Shown here piece by piece: positions 1-21,235 of a stretch of 22,830 nt of DNA. Within the stretch, counting starts at the first letter, position 1. Each line of letters begins with the position of its first letter. The DNA is taken from positions 62,001 through 84,830 of the forward strand of contig JYFJ02001285.1 of NCBI GenBank assembly GCA_000934665.2. Reading direction: 5' to 3'. Source of the DNA: Catajapyx aquilonaris (lineage: Eukaryota). The notes under the pieces were generated by a model. The model was not told where the DNA came from and searched no databases. It was given only the letters and a program-made list of their open reading frames with translations. A program made the translations under genes and the position numbers.

Positions 1-185
1 CCCCTTACTGCCTAATCTTGAAGGCTTCATGAGCTCCAAAAAAAAAAAATGCAGGAAAAACTCGCGTGATGCGGGAAAGATTCTGGATCTGATAAAAATG
101 CACGTCGATACGGTAGAATTGCAAATCCCGAATTTGCGGATTTTAAAATACGTAACTTTCTAGTTATCGCTCATGTATGCAGGAG

Positions 186-205
186 CCAATTCTTCCGTGA
201 CGTAA
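186..205 (+). promoter_or_regulatory. Candidate promoter motifs of gene A (CCAAT box and CRE/ATF-like TGACGTAA)
   Basis: CCAAT at 186-190 and TGACGTAA at 198-205, about 230 nt upstream of the ATG. Motif match only. Confidence 0.3.
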
Positions 206-432
206 ATTCACTCTGGTGTAACTAATTGTGGAATTGCTGCTGGCGGTGTTATGGTAAAGGAACGAAAACGAAAGTGCTTTTTTTCTTCTTCTTATTCTGC
301 ATATGTAACAGTGTGTGAGTCCTAATTCACGGACACATGCAGTAAAAACTGTGTACATCGCATTTTGTAAATATTTCAGCAATTACAGGACATATTATGC
401 TAATGATTTTCCTTATCACTATAGTTGCAGAA

Positions 433-3400
433 ATGACATCACTTGGTCGGCTACTATGGGTAGCAGCCACTATAAGTGGTCTTCTACATTCAACCCATGG
501 CCATGCTAGTGGAGCACCCAGCTCAGTGTGTGGGACCATGACTCCCAAGCACACTGGAACAAAGGCGCAGTTATCACTCTCACCATTTGAAGTAGGCGTA
601 CCTGTGTCAACAGTGCAAGCAGGAGGAAGAATGACTGTGATCATAAGGAGCAAGCAGGGCATTCCATTCAAAGGATTTCTGCTGGAAGCCAGAGATGTTG
701 CGAGACAAAACTCTACTGTTGGCACGTTTGTCATCAAGGACCCAGCCGTTAGCCAGCTTGTCAGTTGTGGAGGTGTCTCTGATGTAAGTAGGCCTATTAA
801 GACATATTAAGAGAGGTTAATAGCATATTTAACCGTACAACTCTTTCAGACTGGTGTGACACACAGGAACAGCAATGATAAGACTAGTGTGAGTGTGGAC
901 TGGGTAGCACCATTGGATTTCACAGGAGAAGTTCATTTCTGGTAAGTTCATCTATTCATTGGACAGTCCCCACAATGTTAACTGATGTCTTTGACAACAG
1001 GGCAACGTTTGTGAGGGATTATGACACATACTGGACCAATCAAACATCCCAAGCAGTGAGTGTCACTGGAGGACAAGCACCATCTGGAAATATGGCGATA
1101 TACAACTCCTGCGGCCAGGGGAAAGCTTGCCTTGGACTTCCAAGTGGTTGCGTTGAGAGGAAAGATTGTCAGTTGGTTGTGAGCTACGTTATGAGCAATG
1201 GCAAATACATGTTTGAAATGGATGGAAAGAGCAACGGCTATGTTGCAGTTGGCCTCTCCAATGATGATATCATGGTAAGTTCCATCTTGAGATGTACCCA
1301 AGGGTGATGAGACTCAATTCCTTGTGCGACCCTTTGTTAACATTGTCATCTATTACAGGGCAATGACAGTGTTGTTGATTGTGTCCGAGAGGGTGAACAA
1401 GTTAAGGCTTACATGTCATGGAACTTGGGAAAACCAGGCAGGAGAGGAAACAGGCGCCTGCAAAATGTAAGGAATCGAATCACTGGGCTATTATTGTACG
1501 CTGATGCATAACAACTAATGATATGCATATTTTAATAGCCGCTGCAAGGATTGAGTAATGTTAGAGGCTCATACAAAGATGGAAGGATTTCCTGCAGTTT
1601 TACTAGAGAAGCACAAACTAATGTTGAAGGTCAAGACTTTAATCTGGACACCAAGCCTTACTATTTGATGCTTGCATCTGGTGACTTGGAGGAAGGTGAG
1701 TGTGCCTATGACATGCACAAGACACTTTGTTAAAATTGGTTGCAGGGATAATAATTCTGAACTACTTTTTTAACAGATGGTGCCCTGGATTACCATTATG
1801 CCAACAAAATTGTTACTCCCACTGCATTCTCACTGAGAACTGGTTTGGCTGTCACTGATGGCACTACGGTGAGTCACATGATATATTTAGAGGTGACGGC
1901 AAATCCTGCAGTTAGTACTTGAGATTTCACTGAATATTTGTGATTTTTCAGCCCTTGCCATCTGGTCTCAAATACGATGGCTGTGGCAAGGCTGTGTCTT
2001 GCTTTGGATTCCCTACGGGATGTGTTGAAGCCAATAGCTGTGAAGCAATGGTGACATATTCACTGAATAATGGAAAGTACACTTTTGAGATAACTGGCCC
2101 CAATACAGGATATGTTGCTTTTGGCCTATCAGCTGACAATAAAATGGTAAGTGCACAATCTCATAAAATAAGGCTATATTTGGAACTCACAAAACTTTAT
2201 TATCCAGGGTAATGACAGTGTTGTGGAATGCTTTAAAGATGGCAATCAAATAAGGACATATATGTCATGGAATTTCGCTACAGAAACCAGGAAAGGCAAC
2301 AGAAGGCTCCCAAATGTGAGTAATAAGAAAGCATAATGTCTGGTATTCCTGGTAATGTAATATATTTTAATGTTTGTTTTAGCCTAATCTCGGTCTGAGC
2401 GACATTTCTGCATCTGACAACAATGGACAAGTTACCTGCAAATTTGTTAGGGAACAGCAAACATCCGTTGAAGGGCATGAATTTGACTTGTCCAAGGACA
2501 ATTTCTACTTAATGCTAGCCCTCGGTCCAGTTAAAACTGGTACGTAAAGTTACTTACATGAGTCCTGTTTCTTGGCAAGGTATTCAAATAACAATGAATG
2601 TTCATTTATGTTTCAGATGGATCATTAGGGTACCATGATGATAACAAAGTAGTTGGTAGTAATCCTGTTGCACTCAGTGCTATTCAGCCACTCAAACCGG
2701 TGAGTTAAACTGTTCAGAGTATTAATCTTCCTGAACGTCCTTCTGATTGCTGATGACATACTTTAAAAAAAATGTCACTGTTGAAGAAGAACTGTAAAGG
2801 AAGATTTACGATTCAGTAGGCCTACTGAAAGCATGAAATTGACATCATATATGTTTCACAAGTGATATACCAGTACATGTAATAAAATCAATTGTCTTCT
2901 GTTTTCCAGGCGGATGATGACCCAATTTATGAAGGGTGTGCAGTGACCAAGGCTTGCTTTGGTTACCCTAGTGAATGTGCTGCAACCAAATCATGTGAAG
3001 GAGTCGTTGCTTATTCAGTGGTTGATGGTAAATACTCATTTGAGTTGAGGGGACAGAGCAGCGGTTATATTGCCTTTGGTCTCTCCTTCGATGACAAAAT
3101 GGTAAGAAATCAAGTTAGGCCTGTCATGCAAATGTTATAGAAAAATATACCTGGCTTCGAAGAGTAGTAAAATGTGATCTCACTTTTCCAGGGTGACGAC
3201 AGTGTAGTGGAATGCATGAAAGAAGGAGACAAGGTTTCTACCTACATGTCGTGGAACTTCCAGAGGTCAGGAAGGAAAGGCAACGAGCGACTATCAACTG
3301 TTAGTATCTTAATCTGATGTAATAATTTAGGTCCACTTGTTTTAAAACTAGTACACCTGTGTGCTGAACATTATCTTGTGTAATGTAGCCTCACATGGGA

Positions 3401-4981
3401 CTGGAACAAATGAGTGGATCATACAAAGACGGATGGATTAACTGCAAGTTTGTCAGAGCCAAGAATACTACTGTTAACGGCATGGAGTTTAACTTGGATA
3501 ATAGCACATACTACTTGATGGTGGCCTTAGGCGAGGTCACGTCAGGTTAGTGTGATTTGGCTGTGATGTGTTGACTAGGAATATTTCATGCCTAATGTTA
3601 CTGTGTACATTATAACAGACGGTAACCTGGAGTATCATGAAACAAGGAGGATTGTCAGTGTTAGTAGCGCAAGTCTGTCCAGTGTTGCTACACTTGCTGG
3701 CAAAAGCAATCTGCTCAAAAAACTTCACGGAGCATTCATGATAACTGCATGGATTGGAGCTGCAAGCTGTGGCATCCTGTTGGCTCGTTACTTCAAGCAA
3801 ACCTGGACCAGGAGGCAAATTTGTGGAAAGGATGTTTGGTTTGCAGTGAGTAGAAATCATCTTTGCTGTGCAACCAGTGCCTAAATGTGCAGAAACTAAC
3901 AAAACACTTTAATTTTTCAGTGGCATCGTGTCATAATGACCACTGCATGGGGACTCACAATTGCAGCATTTGTGCTCATATTTGTGGAGCTGCAAGGCTG
4001 GACCACCTACCCAATCTCGAGAAATCCACATGCCGTACTAGGGTGCATCACTACCGCACTTGCCTTCATCCAGCCAATCATGGCTTTCTTCAGACCCCAT
4101 CCCGGTACACCCAATCGGCCAGTATTCAACTGGGCTCATTGGCTTGTTGGAAACCTGGCTCAGATTCTTGGCAGTAAGTGTTGTATTTCATTGTGCTGCT
4201 TTTTAGACCCAAGTTCATGAATTAGTGACCTTAATCCGAGTCTCTCTGTTACAGTAATCACGATCTTCTTTGCTGTTACTCTTCCGGAGAAGCTACTTCC
4301 AGAGTTCACCTATTGGATATTGGTCGCCTTTGTTGGTTACCACTGCTTGATGCACCTGATTTTCTCAGTAAGAATAATAATTAAAGATTGTGTTTTGTGT
4401 TACAAACTATCACCATCATTAAACTTGACTTTTTGCCCTTCAGATTCACCAGTGCCAATCAGATCGATCAGGAGTCCACGTCATTAGTCCACCGCCTAAC
4501 AGCAAGAATGCTACACAAAGCCGAGTGGATGCTCCAGTAAGAGATGCCTTTATTTTAATGTCAATATAATGAAATTTCTCTATGACTTAAATGTTAAAGG
4601 GACCATAAAAGTATTTGTTGAACTTCTGGTTTTATATTATGAAACTGATTTCACATTTAGTGATGATTTTACGTGACTATAAAGGTCACAATAAAATATA
4701 TAGTAAAAGCAGCATTATTTTGTCGACTAACAGGAAGAAAATAATGTTTCTCTTAGCAACATGGTTGTCATAATCTGAAACCAAGCCACAATTACTAGTA
4801 TTTTTCTAAAGCCAAATTTGAAAATTTTGCTAACTGAATTTTTCAATCATTTCAGGGTTCAACATTCCGGAAGCTGATGCTCGCATTTTACCTTCTTGTC
4901 AATTGGGTTTTGACCATCGTTCTGGTCCTCCTGGTGGTGTTTTCGCCAATTGAAAATCACATCAAGGGCTTATCCTCATAG
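433..4981 (+). CDS. FRRS1: Gene A: FRRS1/SDR2-like ferric-chelate reductase with Reeler + 3x DOMON + cytochrome b561 (961 aa, 18 coding exons)
   Basis: Exons 433-783, 850-941, 1001-1274, 1359-1466, 1539-1695, 1777-1868, 1952-2146, 2208-2315, 2383-2539, 2617-2699, 2910-3101, 3192-3299, 3389-3545, 3619-3845, 3921-4173, 4255-4367, 4444-4536, 4856-4981. All introns are GT-AG with matching phases; 2886 nt, open to TAG. Signal peptide MTSLGRLLWVAATISGLL; Reeler motifs GAPSSVCGTMTPKH, FKGFLLEAR, VTH, WVAP, ATFV...YW; three Cys-rich + DOMON units; b561 His in LHGAFM, WHRVIM, NPHAVLG, WAHWLVG. ATG 433 is preferred to 397 because a ttgcag acceptor ends at 430. The symbol denotes the family, not proven orthology. 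Confidence 0.93.
1096..1868 (+). other. Gene A DOMON unit 1 (Cys-rich lead-in + DOMON)
   Basis: IYNSCGQGKACLGLPSGCVERKDC ... GYVAVGLSNDDIM|GNDSVVDC ... MSWN ... ISCSFTR ... YYLMLASG ... LDYH. Confidence 0.88.
1952..2699 (+). other. Gene A DOMON unit 2 (four exons, bounded by phase-0 introns)
   Basis: YDGCGKAVSCFGFPTGCVEANSC ... GYVAFGLSADNKM|GNDSVVEC ... MSWN ... VTCKFVR ... FYLMLALG ... LGYH. Confidence 0.88.
2910..3680 (+). other. Gene A DOMON unit 3 (membrane-proximal; end coordinate approximate)
   Basis: IYEGCAVTKACFGYPSECAATKSC ... GYIAFGLSFDDKM|GDDSVVEC ... MSWN ... INCKFVR ... YYLMVALG ... LEYH. Confidence 0.88.
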
Positions 4982-5795
4982 GTGGAATGAGCATCATTCA
5001 ACTATTTAAAGTGTCTTGTGTGGAGTTTCTGTGATCTGATATAAGAACAGGAGATGCAGACTAATAATTGTGCGGAAACACGAAAAGTGAACCCTGACAC
5101 AATGAACTAAGAACCACCGACTTTTATGCAGTGCTCTACTAATGAAGTGGATGTTTGCCTACTTTGCATGTTATGCCACTGTAGACACTGAAAACAATGT
5201 CGACAGTTGTGCTGAGTATTTTACTAACCACTATCTGAATGCATGTTCAGGTTAGTGTACAGTACTCCTTTGAGAGAAGTAATTCTGTCTCATGATCTGT
5301 GCAATTTGCCATGTTAAACATGGTGCATAACAATGTACATAGTTGAAAAAAAATATCGCATTGGCACTAGTTTTACAGTGGATTTGCTTTAAAATTTTGA
5401 ACAGAGCAAATTAATTTTCATTATACTTGAACCGTCCTTCTCAGAAGTCAGTTTTAATTACATTGTAGCACAGCTTTTGTATCATACACATGTTTGAACA
5501 CTGCCGTCTAGTGGTACAGTATTTGGAGGTGAAAAATCTGGTGATGTCAGATTTATTTTTGAATATTGTACTTGTGTACACCATCTGAACAGGACCAAAA
5601 ATTTAATTACCATTGTATTAGAATTAAATGTTTGGTACCATTAACCATGATCAGCGGGACCATTCCAAATTATGTTTTTAGTTGGTAAATATTTACATGA
5701 ATAGTTGTTCTTTTTTTTTACTTTTATTCTTCACATAAATGTTTTCAAAAGTGTCAGTCTTCAAGAGTGTAACAGACTGGAGGCTACTGGTACTT

Positions 5796-5801
5796 AATAA
5801 A
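5796..5801 (+). terminator. Candidate polyadenylation signal of gene A
   Basis: First canonical AATAAA I found after the stop codon (about 815 nt downstream), followed by T-rich sequence. Confidence 0.45.
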
Positions 5802-8762
5802 ACTAGTAGTAATGTTTCTACATGTCTCTTATAATTACCTTTCCTTTGTCACACAACATTTTCAAGTTTGCCTTGGAAACTGCATGAAATAGGAAATATT
5901 CCAAAGTGCATGAGATCATATTGAAACGTATTTATAATTGCCTAAGTGAACCATTTTTTTTTCATTCAATGTCAAATGGGCTTTTAAAATATTGGACTAT
6001 CACTTTTACTTTGCATTAATTGAACGCATCTCGAATACAATCCAAGCTGCTTACAAAAAATGCACTTTGAAATTTCTCAATCATTTTCTGGCTTTTTTAG
6101 GTATTGTGCCAGAGCTCCCATGTAACCTTGGGTAGTACTGAAATAGGTCGACTTATTACACATGGAGCAAGCACCCATCATCTACCACCCAATTGAGCAC
6201 CAGAGGTTTTACATCATTTCACGAATGTTATTTGGGTGCTGATTAATTATTTCCAGCAATGAGTAATAGCCATTAACATATTGTAAGTCAGGATGGAAAT
6301 ATATCATAAATATATACTTTTGAGTTAATGAAAGTGACAGTAATTGAGGAGTGGAAAGTTAGAGCCGCAATGTTGAAAAGCGTCTTATGAGCCTAAAATT
6401 AGTGCACACCTCTACAGACCCTTACATGACTGTATTATTATTATGTCCATCAGTAATGAAAGGGGACCTGGGTATAATTAGCTTAGGTGCTGATATGATT
6501 GATCGGTTCTAAGGTACAGTACCAAGTAGCATGTACAGTACAATAGACTCTGGGTGTGAATGAGCAAAATATGGCTGAAAATGAGGAGGGTTTTCTTGTT
6601 GTTTTTTTTTGCAAAAGGAGGTCAATTATTGTTTCTTATTATAAATTCATGTAAACAATGTCAAGATATCTAGCTCTCTCACAATGGTGTCGCTATAAAT
6701 AGCCCAGAGAGAAACTTGCAACTTGGATGATGGCCATTGATGGTCCTGTTTTTTTTTAAAGTTGTCATGCAATAGTTTACAGTGCTGTGAAGTATTGTCA
6801 GATTTTGCGATCTAGCTACACGAAAAATTTACCAAAATAGTAGGAGTTCAGATAACTTCCGTAACGCGAAATGACAAAAAATTATCATTATTATAAAAGT
6901 GACGGCCTTTACAAATAGCCTCACGGTCATAAATCGTCCGTATTATTGCACAGTCTGGGTACTTATTTTTATTTCGCTAAAGCAGGAATAGACTTATAAC
7001 TACCTGAAAGTGCACTTTTTACTAGCAAATCGAGCCTTGCAAAAAGTAACGTTTCAACACAGGATTGGAAAAATGTGTTTGCAACTTTTCACAGTTCAGC
7101 AACTAAGATATGTGCGGAGGTCCTGGTAAGTGGGGTACCTTGGTTAAGCAATCATTCATAAAAAAAAGGGAGCTAATAAATTATATGGTCTGTTTTTAGC
7201 AAGGAACCATTTTTGTATTTGTCTTTGTCAGCCTCGAAAAAAATAATGCAAAGGACCTAATAAACACTCCTATTTTTAGAAGTCGTCTCTCTCGTTGCAC
7301 TTTACTGCACGTCTGTCCGTTTTTCTTTCAGGGTGTTGCGCTAAAATAATGTTTCCTCGTAATACTCACGGTCCAAAACATGCTCTCTGATTAATTGAGG
7401 AAAAATTATTGCGTAATAACACTGTGTAGCTGTGTAGAACCGGCCTAGATGTGGGAACTATGAATATTCGACGAGAAACACCTCGTTCGCAAGCGTAATC
7501 ATCCAGTTCATGGGGGGCTGTAAACACCTGCTTATCAAAGTACTTCACTTATTTTACAACTGCAAACTGTGCTTGTTGGTGAATTTGCATGGTGCGAACT
7601 TGCAAACTAGTGCAGCCTCATTCACAGAGTCGGGTGTCTTACTTTTAGTAGAATTATAGTGTTTGTAAAATATTCCCCTTTTGAGAGAGTTTTATTCAAG
7701 CAAATAAGTGACACAAATGTTCAATAAATTAATTTGTTAACGACTTGTTGACATTAGACTAATGGTGGGTCTATCTACACGCCGGTATATCAATAAACAA
7801 CAAATTAACACTGCCATAAACAACATGCCGCCAACTCGTGCTTTTAATGCAAGGCCACCCACTGCCACCCAAGTCCACAATCCAACAATGAAGGCGGGAG
7901 TGAACCCTCCTGCAAACCACTGACAAGTAACAATCACAGGTAGGATGTGACCCTGACTGTTTTTTTTTTCTTCCCAACAGGTTGAATCTCTGTAAAATTG
8001 GAGGTAAACAATCCACAAAACAATCCTCCCTCAGGGAAGTGCGTCACACCCTGAAAATACACCCTAATTATAACAAAGAAAAAGTTTATCCAACTCTTTA
8101 GCATACTACTAATCCCCTTATTCTCTCAGTCTGCTTATACCCGCGTTGACTCATCGCCTAGGTATTATAGTTACAATAGTTTTCACTTTCGCTGTTCGAC
8201 GATTAGAGGACATTAGCGATCAGAGAGGGTGGGGCCCACTTCAAGTTATAGCACCTTGGTGAGCTTTGTCCGCGTGGTGACTCATCACCAACGTGCATGT
8301 AATACTACTTTCCCCCTGACAGCGGCAGTAGTGTGCAGAGGGACAGCATATGCGCTAACTGGTAGGGGCATATCGTACTACGTCCAATTTGGGGGGTTGG
8401 GCCAAGCAGTGTTGCCAAAATTTGGCAACTAGTTTCACAGTCAACTTTTACACAATTTTTCTTACGCCAACATATTGCATCGTATGGTAGGTCGCAATTT
8501 GACCCAAGTTCATGGCACTAAATGGCCCCAGTTGAATTGGGGCATTGGAGTGGAAATAATGGGGTGAAGGTAGTAGATCCAGTCCCGGAAAAACTTCCAG
8601 ACAAAACCTTCCCTGAGGAAGCAGTTTTTCCTGTTGGTCACTCCGACTACAACTCCCGGTGGAGCTGTTTCTTTATCCCTTCCCCTCCCCCTCAGAAAAG
8701 GCGTTGCAAGATTTTCCCACTCACAACACCCATACCTTCTTACCAGGGGCCCCCTTCTCCAC

Positions 8763-12023: not shown

Positions 12024-15000
12024 ATGGCCCGGCTTGATTACTTATTCACAGTGACAGCTGCTCTTCTATGCATGGTACACCATGCCGAACCATACTCAAT
12101 GGGAGCACCAGACGCAGCATGCAAGGCAATGAAGCCGGACCACGAGACAGATCCGCAAAAGACTCAGCCTCCGTATCATGTTTCGGTGTCCAGTAAAGAG
12201 CTGCAAGCTGGACAGAGGTTAAGGGTCACTTTGGGTAGCTCTCCTGGAGCAGCTTTTGAAGGATATCTACTTCAAGCAAGAGACAAGTCCAGTCCAGAGA
12301 CCATTGTCGGCACTTTCTTTGGGGACAACTTCCCTGGGAGCATCCTTACTTGTGGAAGAGGAATACATGTAGGTCCATCACTTGGTAGTCCGTAGCCAGT
12401 GGAGTAAAAATAATTTCATTTCAGAATGCAGTCACACATAACAACAAGGGGAACAAGACCCAAGTAACGGTTGAGTGGGAGTCACCTCGCTCGTTCAGTG
12501 GAAAGGTGGTCTTCAGGTAGAGAGATTTTGGCCAATCTGATGGTATTAATTATTAGTGAAATGTAATGGAAACAAAGTCTTCTCTCAGGACTATTGGCAT
12601 TAATTTTTAATTGTCATTTGCATTATGAGTTTAGAATGCTATTGCAGCCAGAAAGATGGATAGCGTCCTGTCTTGAACATAATCAAGTTCACAGGAAATC
12701 CTGTGATTTCTCCAAGTGCTATTGTATGGTAGCATACATGAAGGTTATGACGTTGGCTGCTGCATATTAGTTGTGGATCAGATCATATTGCAGATTTTGC
12801 AGTGAACCTCATGTACCCAATCATCTTATTTTCCCATCTGTTTGGCCACAACAGTCACTGTACAGTTCAGGATTTCCCCCCCGAATCTTGGGAACTCCCA
12901 GATTTCATAATTTGTCAATATTACAATAATTGGTGATTAGCAGTTTAATATAAAGTGTCACTTTGCAGGGCAACATTTGTGGCAAACTACAAGACGTTCT
13001 GGGTCAATGTGACATCAGAAGAAATAAGTATTCATCCACAACAAAGCAGCACAGTCACTGTTGGTTCTACTGACAGTACCGTCAGTACAACAGCATTTAC
13101 AACACAGTCAACAACCACTACAACTGGTGCTACTACCACCACTGTCACTACAACAACAGCAACAACACAATTGTTGCCAACAGCACCAGCCTTTGTGCCT
13201 CCTGAGGTAAATGACAGACACTGCTAAGCAGGAGTCAATTAACAGAACTGTTAATTGCTACAACCATGAACCCCCATGCAAGCAGGAAATTAGTGACTTT
13301 CCTTGTTATAAAATAACGTCACTGTACTAATACACAATGAAGTGGTAATCACAAAATGTTTATGTCAGTTTCGTTTCATTCCTTCCAGAATGATGTGGGG
13401 ACTGACCCCATATATGAGGGCTGCTTCAGTGTGAAAAATTGCTTTGGCTACCCAGCCAATTGCGAAGAATCCAAGAATTGTGAGATGATTCTCACGTACG
13501 CAGTGAAAGGCGAGAGATACAACTTTGAATTGAAAGGGAAGTCAAGTGGTTACATTGCTACAGCCCTATCGGAAGATACAAACATGGTGAGTTACTCTGG
13601 TATTCTAACCATCACTTCTCAACTAATGTCAAGCTGATCATTATTGGTATAATCATTATGAAGGTAATGATATTATTGTTATCATTAATGACATGGGGGG
13701 TTATTCTCTGTCATACGGTACTTTCCAGTATGATTACATTTTTTCATTGGTAAATAATTCCTATTCTATTGGCTGACTGCTCAAATGCAACAAGATTATT
13801 TTAGAATGGAGATACCTTGTGTTACACACAGTCCCTACCATTACTTTGTTGCCACAACATCCAACTGAGGATGGCACTCGTACATTGCAAGAACAGTTTC
13901 CTCATTTCTCTGTAGCTGCAGTTGCGAAACAGTTACGGATTTACATAAGGAATGAGGAAGTAGAAACTGCTTGTGATATAAAGACTACTGCCAAGAATAG
14001 GTTATGTGATGGAGAACGAGGCATTATTTTCCTCAAATCATTCATTTGAATTCAGGCAGACTTTCTGCTGAATTACCATGCATAAAGCGGCACACTGGTA
14101 AAATCAGGGATCAACAGGTTCTAGAAAATGCACATCTGGTGTCTACACCAGCATAACGATATAAGACAGGGTGTGCCACTATACAAAGTGGGGTTTTGCT
14201 TACATTTTACCTGCAAAAAAATGTGTAAAGCAAAAATCTTTTTATATGTCTGAGAGTGAACAAAAAGAGAATAGACCCTTGCCTCCTTTCCCCAATCAGT
14301 GTCAACCAGTCATGAGTTTCTTGGCACTCCCCTGTAAATAACTTGCCAACTTTCACAATAAAAGGTAGCCTACACTCGTCTAAGATCGACGTAATGACAT
14401 GGTGGCATGAACATTATGTTCTTGTTATTGCTTAGTGCCGCAAGTGCACTTGAATGTTGACCCAGATATTTGGAATCGCTGTCTCAATTCTTTGTTGGAC
14501 GTTACAGTGCCTCAACTGTTTGTGTCTTGTGGTACTGTACGCGTTGCCTCTTGTAAGGGCCCATACTGCCATTACTGCATGACCATTTTGCAGAGAAACT
14601 GAAATTAATGCAACACTACTTGGGTAAATCTCTCCTTGATATGTGGGGGAGAAAAGGCATTGGTGGAAGGAAATTAGGAAGCTGCATTACTGATTCACAT
14701 GCCTACGTACTGCAGCTTCTGAACTTCCTTATTGCAAATTCCATTCCCGCATTACACTCCTAACCCTGCATGTTGCATTGCTGAGGTCATCGGACACTCT
14801 ATCCTACATGATCAAGAATAGAATTGCATGTGCCGGGGGTGTGTCATATTATTTCCAGTTACACGAAGTAGTGGTTGTATGCTTGAAAACCATTTTTTAA
14901 CGCATGAAGATTCTCACTTGCCTAAACAAGGGTGTTTTGTTCATCGCATAGTTAAATAAGTGGAATCACTTGTAATTACTGCATGGCATATGCAAGCTTC

Positions 15001-17141
15001 TGAAAGGTAAAGAGCACAACAATAAGCCATGGACAATCATACTACAGTCAACTCCGGATATAAGAGAGTTCAAGCGAACATGGAAATCAGTAGCAGTATC
15101 CTATAACCAAGGTGCACTTATCCATCGACTTTTCATCCTGTTAAAAACCGAAAAAGTTGTACCGTGTTGTATCGAGATGTTGTATACCATTGCAGATGCT
15201 AATGGTTAATTTTCCCATTTCAGAAAGATGACAGTGTGGTTCATTGCTTCCGAGATGGGGAAGCAGTGACTACTCAGATGTCTTGGAACTTTGAGGAGGA
15301 TGGGCAAAAGCAAAACAGGATTCTTGATGACGTAAGCATGAACAATACAATATTAGAGTAGTTAATAACTGCATATAATTAACCTAAATCTGACAGCCTG
15401 TAGATGGACTGTCTGATATGGATTCATCTTATAAAGACGGATGGCTCCATTGCAAGTTCACCAGAAAGATGCTCACAGTGATCGAGGGCAAGCTGTTTGA
15501 CCTCTCAAAGGAGAATTACGTTGTAATGCTAGCCATGGGACCAATAATGAATGGTAATATTGTTACAATTTGAGTATCAGCCATCAAATGATTACAAATT
15601 GATTTTTTAAACAGGTAATTTGGAGTACCATGGATCGCAGAAGATGGCAAGCAGCAGGGCTGTATCGTTAGCCAGCCTGTACCGGTTGGAGGCAGCAACA
15701 AATTTGTTCCTGAAGTTGCACGGTGCCTTCATGATTGCTGCATGGCTTGGCCTGTGCACATGCGGTATCATGATTGCTCGGTACTTCAAAAAGACATGGT
15801 CCGGGCAGCGAACATGTGGCAAAGACAACTGGTTTGCAGTAAGTTATGTTAATGCATTAGACAAATGGTAACAGACCTATATTATGGGGTTAAAACTCAC
15901 ATGTGACAGAAGATATTAAAATGTGAGAGAAAAAATGCTAAAACTGCAAAAATATAACCATTTTAAAAGATGACTGGTACGAATTTTGTCGTGCAGTGGC
16001 ATCGCTTTGTGATGATGCTGACCTGGATGCTTACAATTGCGGCGATTGCAATTATCTTTGTGGAGCTGGGCGGATGGACTTCAATACCCATAACAGAGAA
16101 TCCACATCCCATATTAGGCTGTGTGACAACTGCTCTGGCATTTATACAGCCGATTATGGCTCTATGTCGACCAGCTCCCGATGCAGAGAAACGGACCATT
16201 TTTAACTGGATACATTGGAGTGTTGGAAACTTGGCTTTAATATCTGCATGTAAGTTTTTTGGACTTACTTTTTAAAAAATGTGATTGCTCATGCGATTTT
16301 TCTCCTCTTCAGTTGTGACCATTTTCTTTGCTGTGACACTTCCTAAAGCAGAGTTACCAACGTTATCTTACTGGGTGCTAGCAGGAGTGGTTGCATTTTA
16401 TGCATTCATACATATCGTAATGATGGTAAGTAAACAGTTCAATACCCTTGAAATATTACTAATGTAAAAGAGAATTAACACATTACTACCACTTATGCGC
16501 ACATAGTAGGTAGTTTTCACTAAGAAAATATTTCATCAGGCCTCTTTATGGTCACAGAACAACATTACCATTTGTGCAACATCTGCATAAGTAAGTTACG
16601 AGTTATAAGGCTATGTTTTGAGGTAGAGAGCTTAAGGGCTTCTCAAATAGTAACAACCATTACCAGTGACAAAGTTGCACAGCTATTGGAGAAGTTAATT
16701 ATTGGTAACTGACAATACTGTTGGAACGCCATCAAAATATTTTTACTTGTATAAATCTAGAAGTCTACGATATTGGTACGAATGTAAATAATAGCCGTAG
16801 CTTACACATTTTCTTGGGTGTCTGTATTGCAGATTCAGCAGTGTCATTCTGACCGCAAGCAAGCAAAACAAATTATCAAGATGGCAAGTCGGAGTGGTTC
16901 ATCAAATGCTGTAATAAACACCATGGCTGGTGTCAAAGAAGATGCACCTGTAAGTTTTGCTATTATCAAAATTTTTGGGTCTTCGTAACACCTGCAATCA
17001 TTTCAGGGATCGACATTCCGCAAGAGCATCCTCTTCATCTACCTCTTCATCAACTGGATTTTAACAACAATTTTAATTCTTTTTGTGGTTCTTACTCCAA
17101 TCAGCAGTTACGTAGGAAGTTGGGTTGATGAGACCTTATAA
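12024..17141 (+). CDS. FRRS1: Gene B: FRRS1/SDR2-like ferric-chelate reductase with Reeler + Thr-rich linker + DOMON + cytochrome b561 (659 aa, 11 coding exons)
   Basis: Exons 12024-12368, 12425-12516, 12969-13206, 13389-13586, 15224-15331, 15397-15553, 15615-15838, 15997-16249, 16313-16425, 16833-16949, 17007-17141. All GT-AG; 1980 nt, open to TAA. Exon lengths 92/108/157/253/113 match gene A. Reeler YSMGAPDAACKAMKPDH, FEGYLLQAR; DOMON EDTNM|KDDSVVHC ... LEYH; b561 His in LHGAFM, WHRFVM, NPHPILG, WIHWSVG. Confidence 0.93.
14167..14334. mobile_element. Possible degenerate MITE in gene B intron 4
   Basis: Imperfect inverted ends cagggtgtgcca ... tggcactcccctg, 168 bp; no clear target-site duplication. 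Confidence 0.3.
15043..15184. mobile_element. Possible Tc1/pogo-type MITE remnant in gene B intron 4
   Basis: TA-CAGTCAACTCCGGATATAAG resembles pogo/Tigger-type termini; the opposite end (ttgtatcgagatgttgta) matches only weakly. Confidence 0.25.
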
Positions 17142-17520: not shown

Positions 17521-19692
17521 TTAGATGTCATCAGGTGCAGATACAACTACAACTAGAATGAATGTAAGCAGCCAAATGACAATGAGATACGTTGAGACAA
17601 CAACTTGGTGGAAGATGGTGCCCTGAAAATGTTAACTGTCAATTACGAGTTCATCAAGACAGAGCACCTTATGTGTAAGTAACAGACTTACATGGTTCGG
17701 TTCATCCTTGACTACATCAAGTCTGCTGTAACAGGTCTCTTCTTCTTCATTGGCAATGGCCGCCACTTGAACAGACATGTCCTCGTGAAGGAGCTCATGT
17801 GACCTGCGATTTCGGAAGCCACGTATCGTTTGCTGTGCCTGCAACAACACTAATTACCGTACTGAAAATACGGATGTAAAGCAGACTTACGGTAAGTAAA
17901 ATGTGAGCTACACAATGGACCACCACATAACTCGAGAGAATAAGATCAATGCTCTTCGGAAGACCAGCTTTTCCCTGCTTGATTCCAAAGAAGCATGTTG
18001 TAACTGCAACGCATATTTGCATAAATTTAAATGTTCACAAATAGATGTACATTTCACACACCTGCAAGGATGTGAGTGAGGTGGCCAACTGCCCTGTGAG
18101 TGGGGCAGAGGAAGCGCCAGTGACTTTTCTTCCATTTGAATCGAGTAGATGCAATCAGTAGCTGGAGCAGGAGCATTGACATTGTTGCACATCCCAAAGC
18201 TGCGTGGGGATTAATGTGAATGGGAACAGTAGTCCAACCATTCAGTTGAGCCAAGATCAATGAGAGAGCAATGGCTGAGAAAAGAGACACCGCAATCATG
18301 CAGTTCTGATGAACCTGTAGAATATAAGTAACATCACAAGTAAAGATGTCTGCAGGAAAATGCAAAAGCTTAAAACGTACCACAAACCAAATAGGTTTTC
18401 CACAAGCCCTGTACCGCAGCCAATCTGAATTCTTCATGTAACGTGAGAATAGGGTTCCTGTGCTGGCAAATCCTATCCAAGAGAGAATCATAAATACAGC
18501 ATGGTACTTCACCATTGGAAATTCTAAGGGCGTGACCTCAACGTCCTTGCTCAGAAGGACTGACTTGGACATAATTGCTCTGCGAATCCCATGGTATTTG
18601 ACCTTTCCTGATTCGCCAATATCACCAGCAGCCACCATCAAGTAGTACGACTCATTCAAGAGGTCAAACGTCCAGTTTCCCACCTCAATTTTGCTTGGTA
18701 GGGAAAATCCACAGAGTAACCATCCGTCATCGTTCACAGCACGAATATTCGTCAAGCCTTGAGTCTAGAAAAAAAAAATGCATGATTGGATGATGTAAAA
18801 ACCAGCCTACTTGGGGCAGACGTTTAAAAATATATCAGCTGCGGATTCCTCATATCTGATGCGAGATGATAAATTTCTGTCATCTACGTATATCATCTAT
18901 ATCCACTCAGGATAAACTGCGATTACCTCATTCAATAACTGCACACCCTTTTCCTGACCAGGTCCACCAACATTCCAGAGTTTCGCAACCCTAATGCCCT
19001 CTTCATCCTTGTAGCATATCACTCCACCGTCATTTCCCTAAGCCGGAGAAGTAGACTTATGTTAAATGGTGTCACATGATATTACGTCACATCATCAGTG
19101 TTGATAAGAATATTTCAAACCCGAAATGGTAATATTTGCGAATTGAGGCGACGTGACAATTTCTAATACACACTCAGGCCTGGTTGTATCAATGCGATTT
19201 AAGCAAGAGAAAATCTGGAGGTTTTTGTTCACCCAAGATTTAACTGCAGGTTTTCGCAAACTGGCGTTGATACAACGGGTTCGTTAATCACAGATTTTAT
19301 ACCTAGTAACCACAGGTTCAGAGAAAACCTGTTTCGATACAACTGGCCCGAAGTGAATTTCGAGCCAAAGACCAGTTCTTACCATAAATTCATCATCAGA
19401 CAATGCAATAGCCACATAGCCTTTACTATAGGCCAGCAGCTCAAAAATGAACACGCCATCAGAATGTGCGTAAGTAGCAAGCGTCGCACATGTACCGTCA
19501 TCAACACAACCATTCCGAATTCCAAAGCAGCCCTTTTGAGTGAAGCACGTATCATACACTCCGATATACGGAGCATATTTGGATGCTGGCGTACTCTGAA
19601 AAAAATGTTATTAATATACATACTTTATCAATGAACAGGCTATACTCACAGTGACATTGATATGTATTGTTTCCGTCTGAAAATGGGATAAA

Positions 19693-19747
<55 letters not shown>

Positions 19748-19912
19748 TACCGTAGTGGTTACGGCAGTGGTTACTGTGGCATGTCGGGCAGTTGTGGTCA
19801 TGAGGTTAGCTGCCTGTGTTGCATCGTCAGTCTTGTTGACCTGAGTACTATTATTAGCCTCTACTGTGTACAAGGCCAATATTAAAATTATTGCGACTGC
19901 CAGTCGGTTCAT
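17521..19912 (-). CDS. FRRS1: Gene C: divergent Reeler-less FRRS1-like protein, signal peptide + Thr-rich stalk + DOMON + cytochrome b561 (503 aa, 9 coding exons)
   Basis: Minus-strand exons 19912-19751, 19676-19650, 19595-19383, 19037-18927, 18764-18381, 18314-18062, 18003-17891, 17838-17692, 17622-17521. All GT-AG; 1512 nt, open to TAA. Signal peptide MNRLAVAIILILALYTVEA; YDTCFTQKGCFGIRNGC; SDDEFM|GNDGGVIC; VKYH; b561 His in KYHAVFM, VHQNCM, NPHAALG, PTHRAVG. The 253- and 113-nt exons are shared with genes A and B. Confidence 0.9.
19177..19349. mobile_element. MITE with PIF/Harbinger-like termini in a gene C intron
   Basis: Inverted ends ggcctggttgtatcaa (19177-19192) and tcgatacaactggccc (19334-19349), 173 bp, plus an internal ttgatacaac copy; TSD degenerate. 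Confidence 0.55.
19694..19747. repeat. Perfect (ATT)18 microsatellite inside a 74-nt intron of gene C
   Basis: Read directly; bounded on the minus strand by a GTAAAT donor (19750) and a cccattttcag acceptor (19677). Confidence 0.95.
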
Positions 19913-21129: not shown

Positions 21130-21235
21130 ATGGAACTGGTGGTCAAGTGGGCCTGGTGTGGCTTAGTTCTGGCTCTCATGGCTCTGGCCGTGGCGCCAAC
21201 CACACCCAATGTGCAGTTTGAAGCTGCCTTTCAAG
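21130..21235 (+). CDS. Probable first coding exon (signal peptide) of an unidentified secreted or membrane protein; partial
   Basis: caagATGG start; MELVVKWAWCGLVLALMALAVAPTTPNVQFEAAFQ; strong AAG|GTAAGC donor (phase 1); GC-rich, downstream of a CpG-rich stretch. I could not identify downstream exons in the window. Confidence 0.6.

Follow-up and report, generated by a model that had tools for sequence, protein, structure and literature searches.

Gene A of Catajapyx aquilonaris, a Reeler and cytochrome b561 gene with three DOMON units, and its multi-DOMON relatives in other animals

Gene A and its neighbours

The DNA analysed here, a stretch of 22,830 nucleotides from Catajapyx aquilonaris (assembly GCA_000934665.2, contig JYFJ02001285.1, positions 62,001 to 84,830 of the forward strand) that we refer to as the window, is eukaryotic, has short introns and carries a cluster of three paralogous genes, A, B and C (Table 1). 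Gene A, the first of the cluster, encodes three DOMON units between a Reeler and a cytochrome b561 domain, and we can conclude that this is a genuine and intact three-unit form of an established ferric-reductase family, one example among many comparable expansions. Judged by its sequence it is a lineage-specific paralog, with a triplicated DOMON exon block, among the CYBDOM proteins of the SDR2/FRRS1/CG8399 class, while for the purpose of the DOMON repeat, in gene A as in other animals, only candidate roles can be offered.

Table 1. Coordinates of the genes and domains in the window (position 1 is its first nucleotide; aa, amino acids)
Feature	Position	Strand	Details
Gene A, coding span	433..4981	+	18 exons, 961 aa: putative signal peptide, Reeler, DOMON x3, cytochrome b561
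Gene A, exons 1-6	433-783, 850-941, 1001-1274, 1359-1466, 1539-1695, 1777-1868	+	
Gene A, exons 7-12	1952-2146, 2208-2315, 2383-2539, 2617-2699, 2910-3101, 3192-3299	+	
Gene A, exons 13-18	3389-3545, 3619-3845, 3921-4173, 4255-4367, 4444-4536, 4856-4981	+	
Reeler domain	505..1067	+	aa 25-170, exons 1-3; Pfam PF02014, E 2.5e-15 on exon 1; local profile
DOMON unit 1, outermost	1095..1850	+	aa 180-352; Met239 at 1272-1274, His334 at 1794-1796
DOMON unit 2	1967..2690	+	aa 364-536; Met423 at 2144-2146, His518 at 2634-2636
DOMON unit 3, membrane-proximal	2922..3692	+	aa 544-716; Met603 at 3099-3101, His698 at 3636-3638
Cytochrome b561 domain and C-terminal helices	3696..4981	+	Pfam PF03188, E 0.0016 on exon 15 alone, under the curated cut-off; alignment; hydropathy
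b561 His codons	3726-3728, 3924-3926, 4029-4031, 4137-4139	+	His728, His769, His804, His840
Gene B, paralog	12024..17141	+	659 aa; 10/10 introns GT-AG; predicted gene model
Gene C, divergent paralog	17521..19912	-	503 aa; predicted gene model

All 17 introns of gene A are of the GT-AG type and its exons form a single open frame, for which reason a pseudogene was rejected. Furthermore, run X1 compared with positions 1-6000 of the window gave two contigs, one of which, 3,793 bases long, passes over the gene A introns at GT..AG, with 15 joints displayed and two further ones not displayed. Its coordinates, from 423 to 5769, cover 3,684 bases, the exact total of 18 exons, with no deviating letter in the seven displayed pieces, and the 30-base consensus of its 109-base 5' loose end is absent from the window. 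Since the introns are cleanly removed we infer that this contig, from a run of unrecorded kind, is cDNA, albeit as an assembled contig it is no single-molecule evidence and rare isoforms would be dropped from it. The second contig (242 bases, depth 5.4) lies inside the last gene A intron at 4546-4787 and represents a retained intron or pre-mRNA.

The three complete DOMON units of the original prediction are thus confirmed by the gene model and the spliced contig, although the span first given, 1001..4173, lies inside a gene that runs further on both sides. The ligand Met codons indeed stand at the exon ends 1274, 2146 and 3101 (M239, M423 and M603), the LDYH, LGYH and LEYH motifs supply H334, H518 and H698, and the four b561 His are likewise present. 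The Cys-rich segment ascribed to each unit is found as well but is no separate novelty, since it also opens the single DOMON of genes B and C, and it was accordingly rejected as a module of its own.

Each unit of gene A corresponds to one exon block in which exons of 108 and 157 bases recur with matching phases and which begins and ends in phase 0, an arrangement that would permit in-frame skipping of a unit. When the nine unit exons were tested singly, Pfam recognised DOMON on six, all under the curated cut-off as pieces, and gave no match on the three 36-residue exons. Identity among the units is 46-50% at the protein level and 59-60% at the DNA level, with 65 of 172 columns invariant and all six Cys and both ligands intact. 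Since the DNA identity is this low, and since comparison of the equivalent introns revealed no clear likeness, the triplication is, on sequence grounds, old and not an assembly duplicate; an assembly artefact was also rejected in view of the spliced contig. The Met/His pair and the SxDxxMGxD loop, a proposed iron site, are intact in all three units. Unit 3 moreover retains K602 and R702, the equivalents of K285 and R383, which are predicted to contact b561 (PMC10691727), and the same positions hold K/K in unit 2 and I/K in unit 1. The linkers are short, with 35 and 31 residues, mostly domain, between a His and the next Cys. At the N-terminus, residues 1-24 resemble a signal peptide by eye, and the hydropathy scan gave no flag there.

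The b561 core covers aa 718-860 according to the local profile, hydropathy gives six hydrophobic segments, and H728, H769, H804 and H840 align to H1-H4 of the Drosophila protein P0221. It should also be mentioned that the entire set of cytoplasmic-face residues of CG8399, taken from PMC10691727, is present in gene A as K751, K762, W765, F766, R825, P826, P828, R833 and N837, the matched offsets being H1+23 (basic), H2-4 (W), H2-3 (F), H3+21 (R), H3+22 (P), H3+24 (P), H4-7 (R) and H4-3 (N).

Gene B has the 108- and 157-base exons of gene A and consists of a Reeler, a Thr/Ser-rich stalk, one DOMON (Met291/His385) and b561, which makes it a natural single-unit comparator for gene A. Its DOMON is interrupted by a 1.6-kb intron (13587-15223), and Lys replaces Gly after the ligand Met. 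Gene C, which sits on a long branch, has no Reeler, one DOMON (Met134/His229) and a b561 with four His; since this b561 is without the two prolines, the H4-7 Arg and the H4-3 Asn of the cytoplasmic ascorbate face, gene C may use a donor other than ascorbate. An (ATT)n microsatellite is located in the first intron of gene C (about 19694-19747), and a segment at about 21130-21235 on the plus strand, which opens like a signal peptide and has a GT donor behind it, is probably the first coding exon of another gene. No tRNA genes were found in the window.

Multi-DOMON relatives and their heme ligands

A profile was built from four exons of the window that all end at the Met. With E values up to 0.001 it matched 1,071 representatives, and the best 150 of these, in a ranking that favours multi-unit proteins, were examined together with 66 and 14 proteins from further searches. 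After removal of 18 isoform or cluster duplicates, and with A, B and C taken in and 14 b561-exon matches left out, b561-bearing modules among the matches examined have one (52), two (33), three (9), four (6), five (1), six (3), seven (1) or eight (1) units, which are counts and not frequencies. A unique architecture was therefore rejected, since at least 20 proteins besides gene A combine 3-8 units with b561 (full in 13, partial in 7), and Pfam gave the same picture on 43 selected proteins with somewhat lower unit counts. A Reeler, four units and b561 are found in the millipede Chamberlinius (GAB6031634) and the springtail Allacma (CAG7837810), and a Reeler, three units and a truncated b561 in the annelid Dimorphilus (CAD5113583). 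Four units occur in the brine shrimp Artemia (XP_065561923), six in the echinoderm Amphiura (XP_072017628), seven in the tardigrade Hypsibius (OWA54550), and three each in the echinoderms Asterias and Anneissia and the soft coral Dendronephthya. All of these are automatic annotations, and most are without a Reeler. When the ESM Atlas was queried with a three-unit relative, the top cluster was an 894-aa protein with DOMON and b561 and 83 members, commonest in Nematoda. Of 62 candidates from a search with the b561 exon, 14 were relatives, with identity reaching 73%, and the window encodes none of them; a word-based search with exon 3 gave no relatives among 24 candidates.

Some observations concern individual database entries. 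Isoforms or cluster members may lie one unit apart, as with Amphiura P0009 and P0155 (six against five units), and P0033 has three units where P0237 has a partial fourth. In Allacma fusca the two- and four-unit paralogs P0028 and P0030 have neighbouring accessions and both reside on contigs 93,263 long, suggesting a tandem cluster like that of the window. P0026 contains Reeler-DOMON-b561 twice in a chain of 1,226 aa and is probably two tandem genes fused by gene prediction.

The original prediction had allowed that the architecture might be already common and described. Common in databases it is, but in print this holds for two units, and no description of three or more DOMON units with b561 was found in the searchable literature, most subscription papers lying outside its reach; Iyer 2007 and Asard 2013 may show multi-DOMON architectures. 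Among 888 insect CYBDOM hits 19 are reported to have two DOMONs; in the aphid both of these carry the ligands, and their arrangement in space is called unknown there. The phrase "three DOMON" does not occur in the text and 12 of the 13 supplements of that paper (PMC10691727). CYBDOMs have been defined as having one or more DOMON domains (PMC10784544). In PMC3204972 "three DOMON" refers to three genes and not to three units, the accessible part of PMC6003135 deals with Reeler/DOMON shell proteins only, and the phrase also matches in bioRxiv 2024.12.25.630297.

In a FastTree analysis of 116 units the units group by lineage, with support of 85 for gene A, 93 for Artemia, 100 for Chamberlinius, 95 for Allacma, 92 for Hypsibius, 86 for Dimorphilus, 99 each for Anneissia, Asterias, Amphiura and Polypedilum, 100 for Dendronephthya and 87 for Diabrotica. 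This clustering points to repeated independent expansion of DOMON units in the sequences compared, although homogenisation within genes could inflate the number of origins. A quick IQ-TREE tree of 52 units likewise groups A1-3 with B at 92 and nests the beetle and midge pairs among single-unit insects, while the Artemia units and those of P0020 fail to join. Since the units of gene A group together and with gene B, they arose, by this evidence, separately from the two-DOMON insect forms. A quick midpoint-rooted b561 tree places A and B just outside the winged-insect clade, a placement that is weak. The window probably comes from a non-pterygote arthropod.

The heme ligands are well kept throughout this sample. 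In the alignment Drosophila P0221 has Met286/His379, the numbers given in PMC10691727, and the ligand columns are therefore the published ones. Among b561-bearing proteins, with the units of gene A counted, Met and His are both present in 51 of 52 single units, 53 of 54 proximal units of multi-unit proteins, 50 of 54 second units and 44 of 45 third or further units, which for distal units amounts to 94 of 99. The search profile, since it ends at the Met, biases the count of this residue, but the His lies outside the profile, and its column is 96% conserved in distal units, on par with the disulfide Cys. A MAFFT alignment of the first set gave 71/74 distal and 45/45 proximal units, and in it His is present in two of the five distal misses of the larger count. 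By contrast, 77 low-scoring units from 17 proteins in which no b561 was seen have neither ligand in any instance (0/77). These proteins are SDR2-like arrays of 2-23 DOMON repeats, comprising P0002 (the teleost Echeneis naucrates, XP_029382781, 23 repeats) and 16 others. The real losses concern the second unit from the membrane with outer units intact, namely unit 7 of 8 in P0001 (Met to Ile) and unit 5 of 6 in P0004 (both ligands), although these proteins are related and the losses may be one event. Unit 1 of the fragment P0055 is similarly without ligands. As 65 of 172 columns are invariant within gene A anyway, the argument rests on these family data. Since distal units keep both ligands and b561-less repeats keep neither, the proposed 3+2 hemes stand as a plausible upper number for gene A, and multi-electron storage is plausible likewise.

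Known systems and predicted structures

With SDR2/FRRS1 of mammals and CG8399 of Drosophila gene A shares the order Reeler-DOMON-b561, Met/His at the Met286/His379 columns, four b561 His and the CG8399-type cytoplasmic residues, but it has three DOMON units instead of one. Ferric reductase activity in vitro has been reported for CG8399 and mouse SDR2, although the function of the DOMON in CYBDOM reductases is called unknown (PMC10691727). Tandem Met/His DOMONs between Reeler and b561 are also found in CG8399 orthologs with two DOMONs from Hemiptera and leaf beetles (Holst et al. 2023, PMC10691727), a group that includes the best overall match to gene A, P0024 (41% over 624 aa), but gene A differs in its third unit and separate origin. 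The multi-DOMON CYBDOMs of the databases share with gene A three or more ligand-bearing units ahead of b561, but belong to other lineages, have other unit numbers and are mostly without a Reeler.

The plant CYBDOMs HYP1 and CRR may be likened to gene A in their ascorbate-fed electron transfer across the membrane to Fe(III)/Cu(II), and P302, R307 and N311 of HYP1 correspond to P828, R833 and N837 of gene A at the same offsets from the fourth His. However, HYP1 and CRR have one DOMON and no Reeler, and AIR12, a DOMON-only plant protein, has no b561. For HYP1 a three-heme conduit has been proposed, with modelled Fe-Fe distances of 23.5 and 20.9 A and one heme edge exposed, and its M90L and H174L variants mislocalise, so that ligand mutants could not be assayed (PMC10784544). 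Ascorbate reduces the heme of AIR12 completely although no b561 is fused to it (PMC10784552).

Among soluble proteins, the cytochromes of cellobiose dehydrogenase (CDH; 1d7b, 4qi3) and of PQQ pyranose dehydrogenase (PDH; 6jt6) have the same fold, as compared through stand-in relatives of gene A, and the same Met/His heme b ligation. The tethered DOMON of CDH shuttles electrons between open and closed states, docked at 9 A edge-to-edge with a limit of 14 A (PMC4507011). Unlike gene A, CDH and PDH have one cytochrome domain, a long linker and a flavin or PQQ donor. No flavin dehydrogenase domain is found in gene A, in which Reeler, three DOMON and b561 fill the chain, and CDH may thus serve as a working analogy but not as a class to which gene A belongs. 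Multiheme wires of the OmcS/MtrC type have c-type CxxCH motifs and a fixed heme chain within about 14 A edge-to-edge. Gene A differs from them in that inspection of its 961-aa translation by eye revealed no CxxCH motif.

Structure prediction was carried out on relatives in place of gene A, with alignments of 33-34 rows. P0020 (three units and b561) gave pLDDT 86.9 and pTM 0.57, and P0024 (Reeler, two units and b561) pLDDT 81.6 and pTM 0.42, with values under 50 at its inter-unit linker and DOMON-b561 junction; in both the domains are confident, but the whole chain is not. The predicted folds match the CDH/PDH cytochrome domains (Z 12.2-13.0, root mean square deviation 3.2-3.7, 153-159 residues aligned) and Dcytb (Z 12.7, deviation 3.2, 168 aligned), and further matches are the DOMON of dopamine beta-hydroxylase, plant b561 and the spondin Reeler. 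A prediction of the distal DOMON of P0024 against its proximal DOMON and b561, with four hemes and the alignment not used, gave no answer on the complex (score 0.00, mark 0.34). Sequence search for a solved CYBDOM structure returned none, its three matches all being spondin Reeler. In such models a low pTM is to be read as no arrangement being predicted and not as proof that none exists.

Possible roles of the outer units

The reading that we favour, though we consider it just as apt to be wrong as right, is that gene A encodes an ascorbate-fed reductase of the SDR2/CG8399 type extended by tethered heme modules that would dock transiently. As in homologs, cytosolic ascorbate would reduce the two b561 hemes, and unit 3 would sit on b561 and accept an electron, along the path modelled for the single-DOMON CYBDOMs CG8399 (PMC10691727) and HYP1 (PMC10784544). 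Units 1 and 2, since they retain the ligands, would also carry a b-type heme through Met/His. In the most speculative step, these outer units would be single-heme modules tethered by short linkers that contain Pro/Gly. They would receive electrons when their hemes dock transiently, in the manner of the mobile DOMON-fold cytochrome of CDH, and would add electron capacity and, close to the cell surface, further sites of Fe(III)/Cu(II) reduction without a fixed long-range wire. Several points weigh against this. The linkers of gene A are short, whereas that of CDH is long and flexible, and ligand retention may reflect folding, as the mislocalised Met/His mutants of HYP1 illustrate (PMC10784544). 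Distal units are furthermore not independent samples, many of them being hemipteran. As to the models, the pTM of 0.42 is low even for a proximal unit with b561, and with models of relatives built on shallow alignments, low pTM may stem from that shallowness and not from flexibility.

A rather less probable account, though one to be taken seriously, is that outer-unit heme is not fed by b561, in which case it could be structural or be reduced directly by extracellular ascorbate as in AIR12 (PMC10784552), or the units could capture heme or iron or act as spacers lifting the Reeler. The behaviour of the HYP1 mutants (PMC10784544) and of AIR12 is in agreement with this account, as are the intact outer units of P0001 and P0004 beyond a ligand-deficient second unit, the Thr/Ser-rich stalk of gene B in the place of units 1-2 of gene A, and the scarcity of a basic residue before the Met in third or further units (9/45, as opposed to 41/52 in single units), albeit the last comparison is confounded by lineage. 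However, among the proteins fetched, ligandless repeats are confined to 17 proteins (77 units) in which no b561 was seen, and since these repeats presumably fold, heme would not be needed for the fold as such; nor is a spacer role for the Reeler general, since many expansions are without one. The original prediction had instead pictured an electron wire, which here would mean three DOMON and two b561 hemes in a stable chain leading away from the membrane. Near-complete ligand retention at all ranks, fairly regular spacing (77-113 residues from His to next Met, mostly about 85), the short linkers and the HYP1 conduit proposal (PMC10784544) speak in its favour, and repeated independent expansion suggests some benefit. 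Such a fixed chain is nonetheless disfavoured, because unit number varies from one to eight, because an eight-unit and a six-unit relative each have a second unit deficient in ligands, because there is one heme per about 180 residues, and because the proximal pocket is modelled toward b561 with one exposed edge, so that middle hemes would need two close neighbours each. Neither stand-in model (pTM 0.57 and 0.42) gave a confident inter-domain arrangement of the kind a wire reaching far from the membrane calls for, and CxxCH motifs are lacking; the fixed wire is thus less likely than looser arrangements, and we regard it as improbable. More improbable by far is a neutral duplication with extra units that bind no heme and do little: a block with phase 0 at both ends does duplicate easily, and with so many invariant columns Met/His in three units is not striking alone, but at about 60% DNA identity the frame, six Cys and both ligands are kept, and distal retention across the family (94/99) is in poor agreement with such drift.

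A further-reaching and doubtful proposition is that arrays of 2-8 heme-binding DOMON modules, electronically coupled to the membrane cytochrome, have been added to the ascorbate-fed b561 conduit on at least ten independent occasions in animals. If true, eukaryotes would possess a so far unrecognised class of multiheme redox arrays at the cell surface, with up to ten hemes per chain, serving multi-electron or longer-range extracellular reduction, and gene A beside its paralog B would be a clean test pair. Multi-unit forms also offer outer units that could be deleted or mutated, with the proximal unit left to maintain the fold. The comparative finding that ligands are kept over many expansions and are absent from b561-less repeats is more interesting than gene A itself. 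If the outer hemes are uncoupled, gene A and its counterparts would represent ordinary domain duplication in a known ferric reductase, and if they are coupled, these proteins would be multiheme relays at the cell surface, of a type for which the literature searched gave no description.

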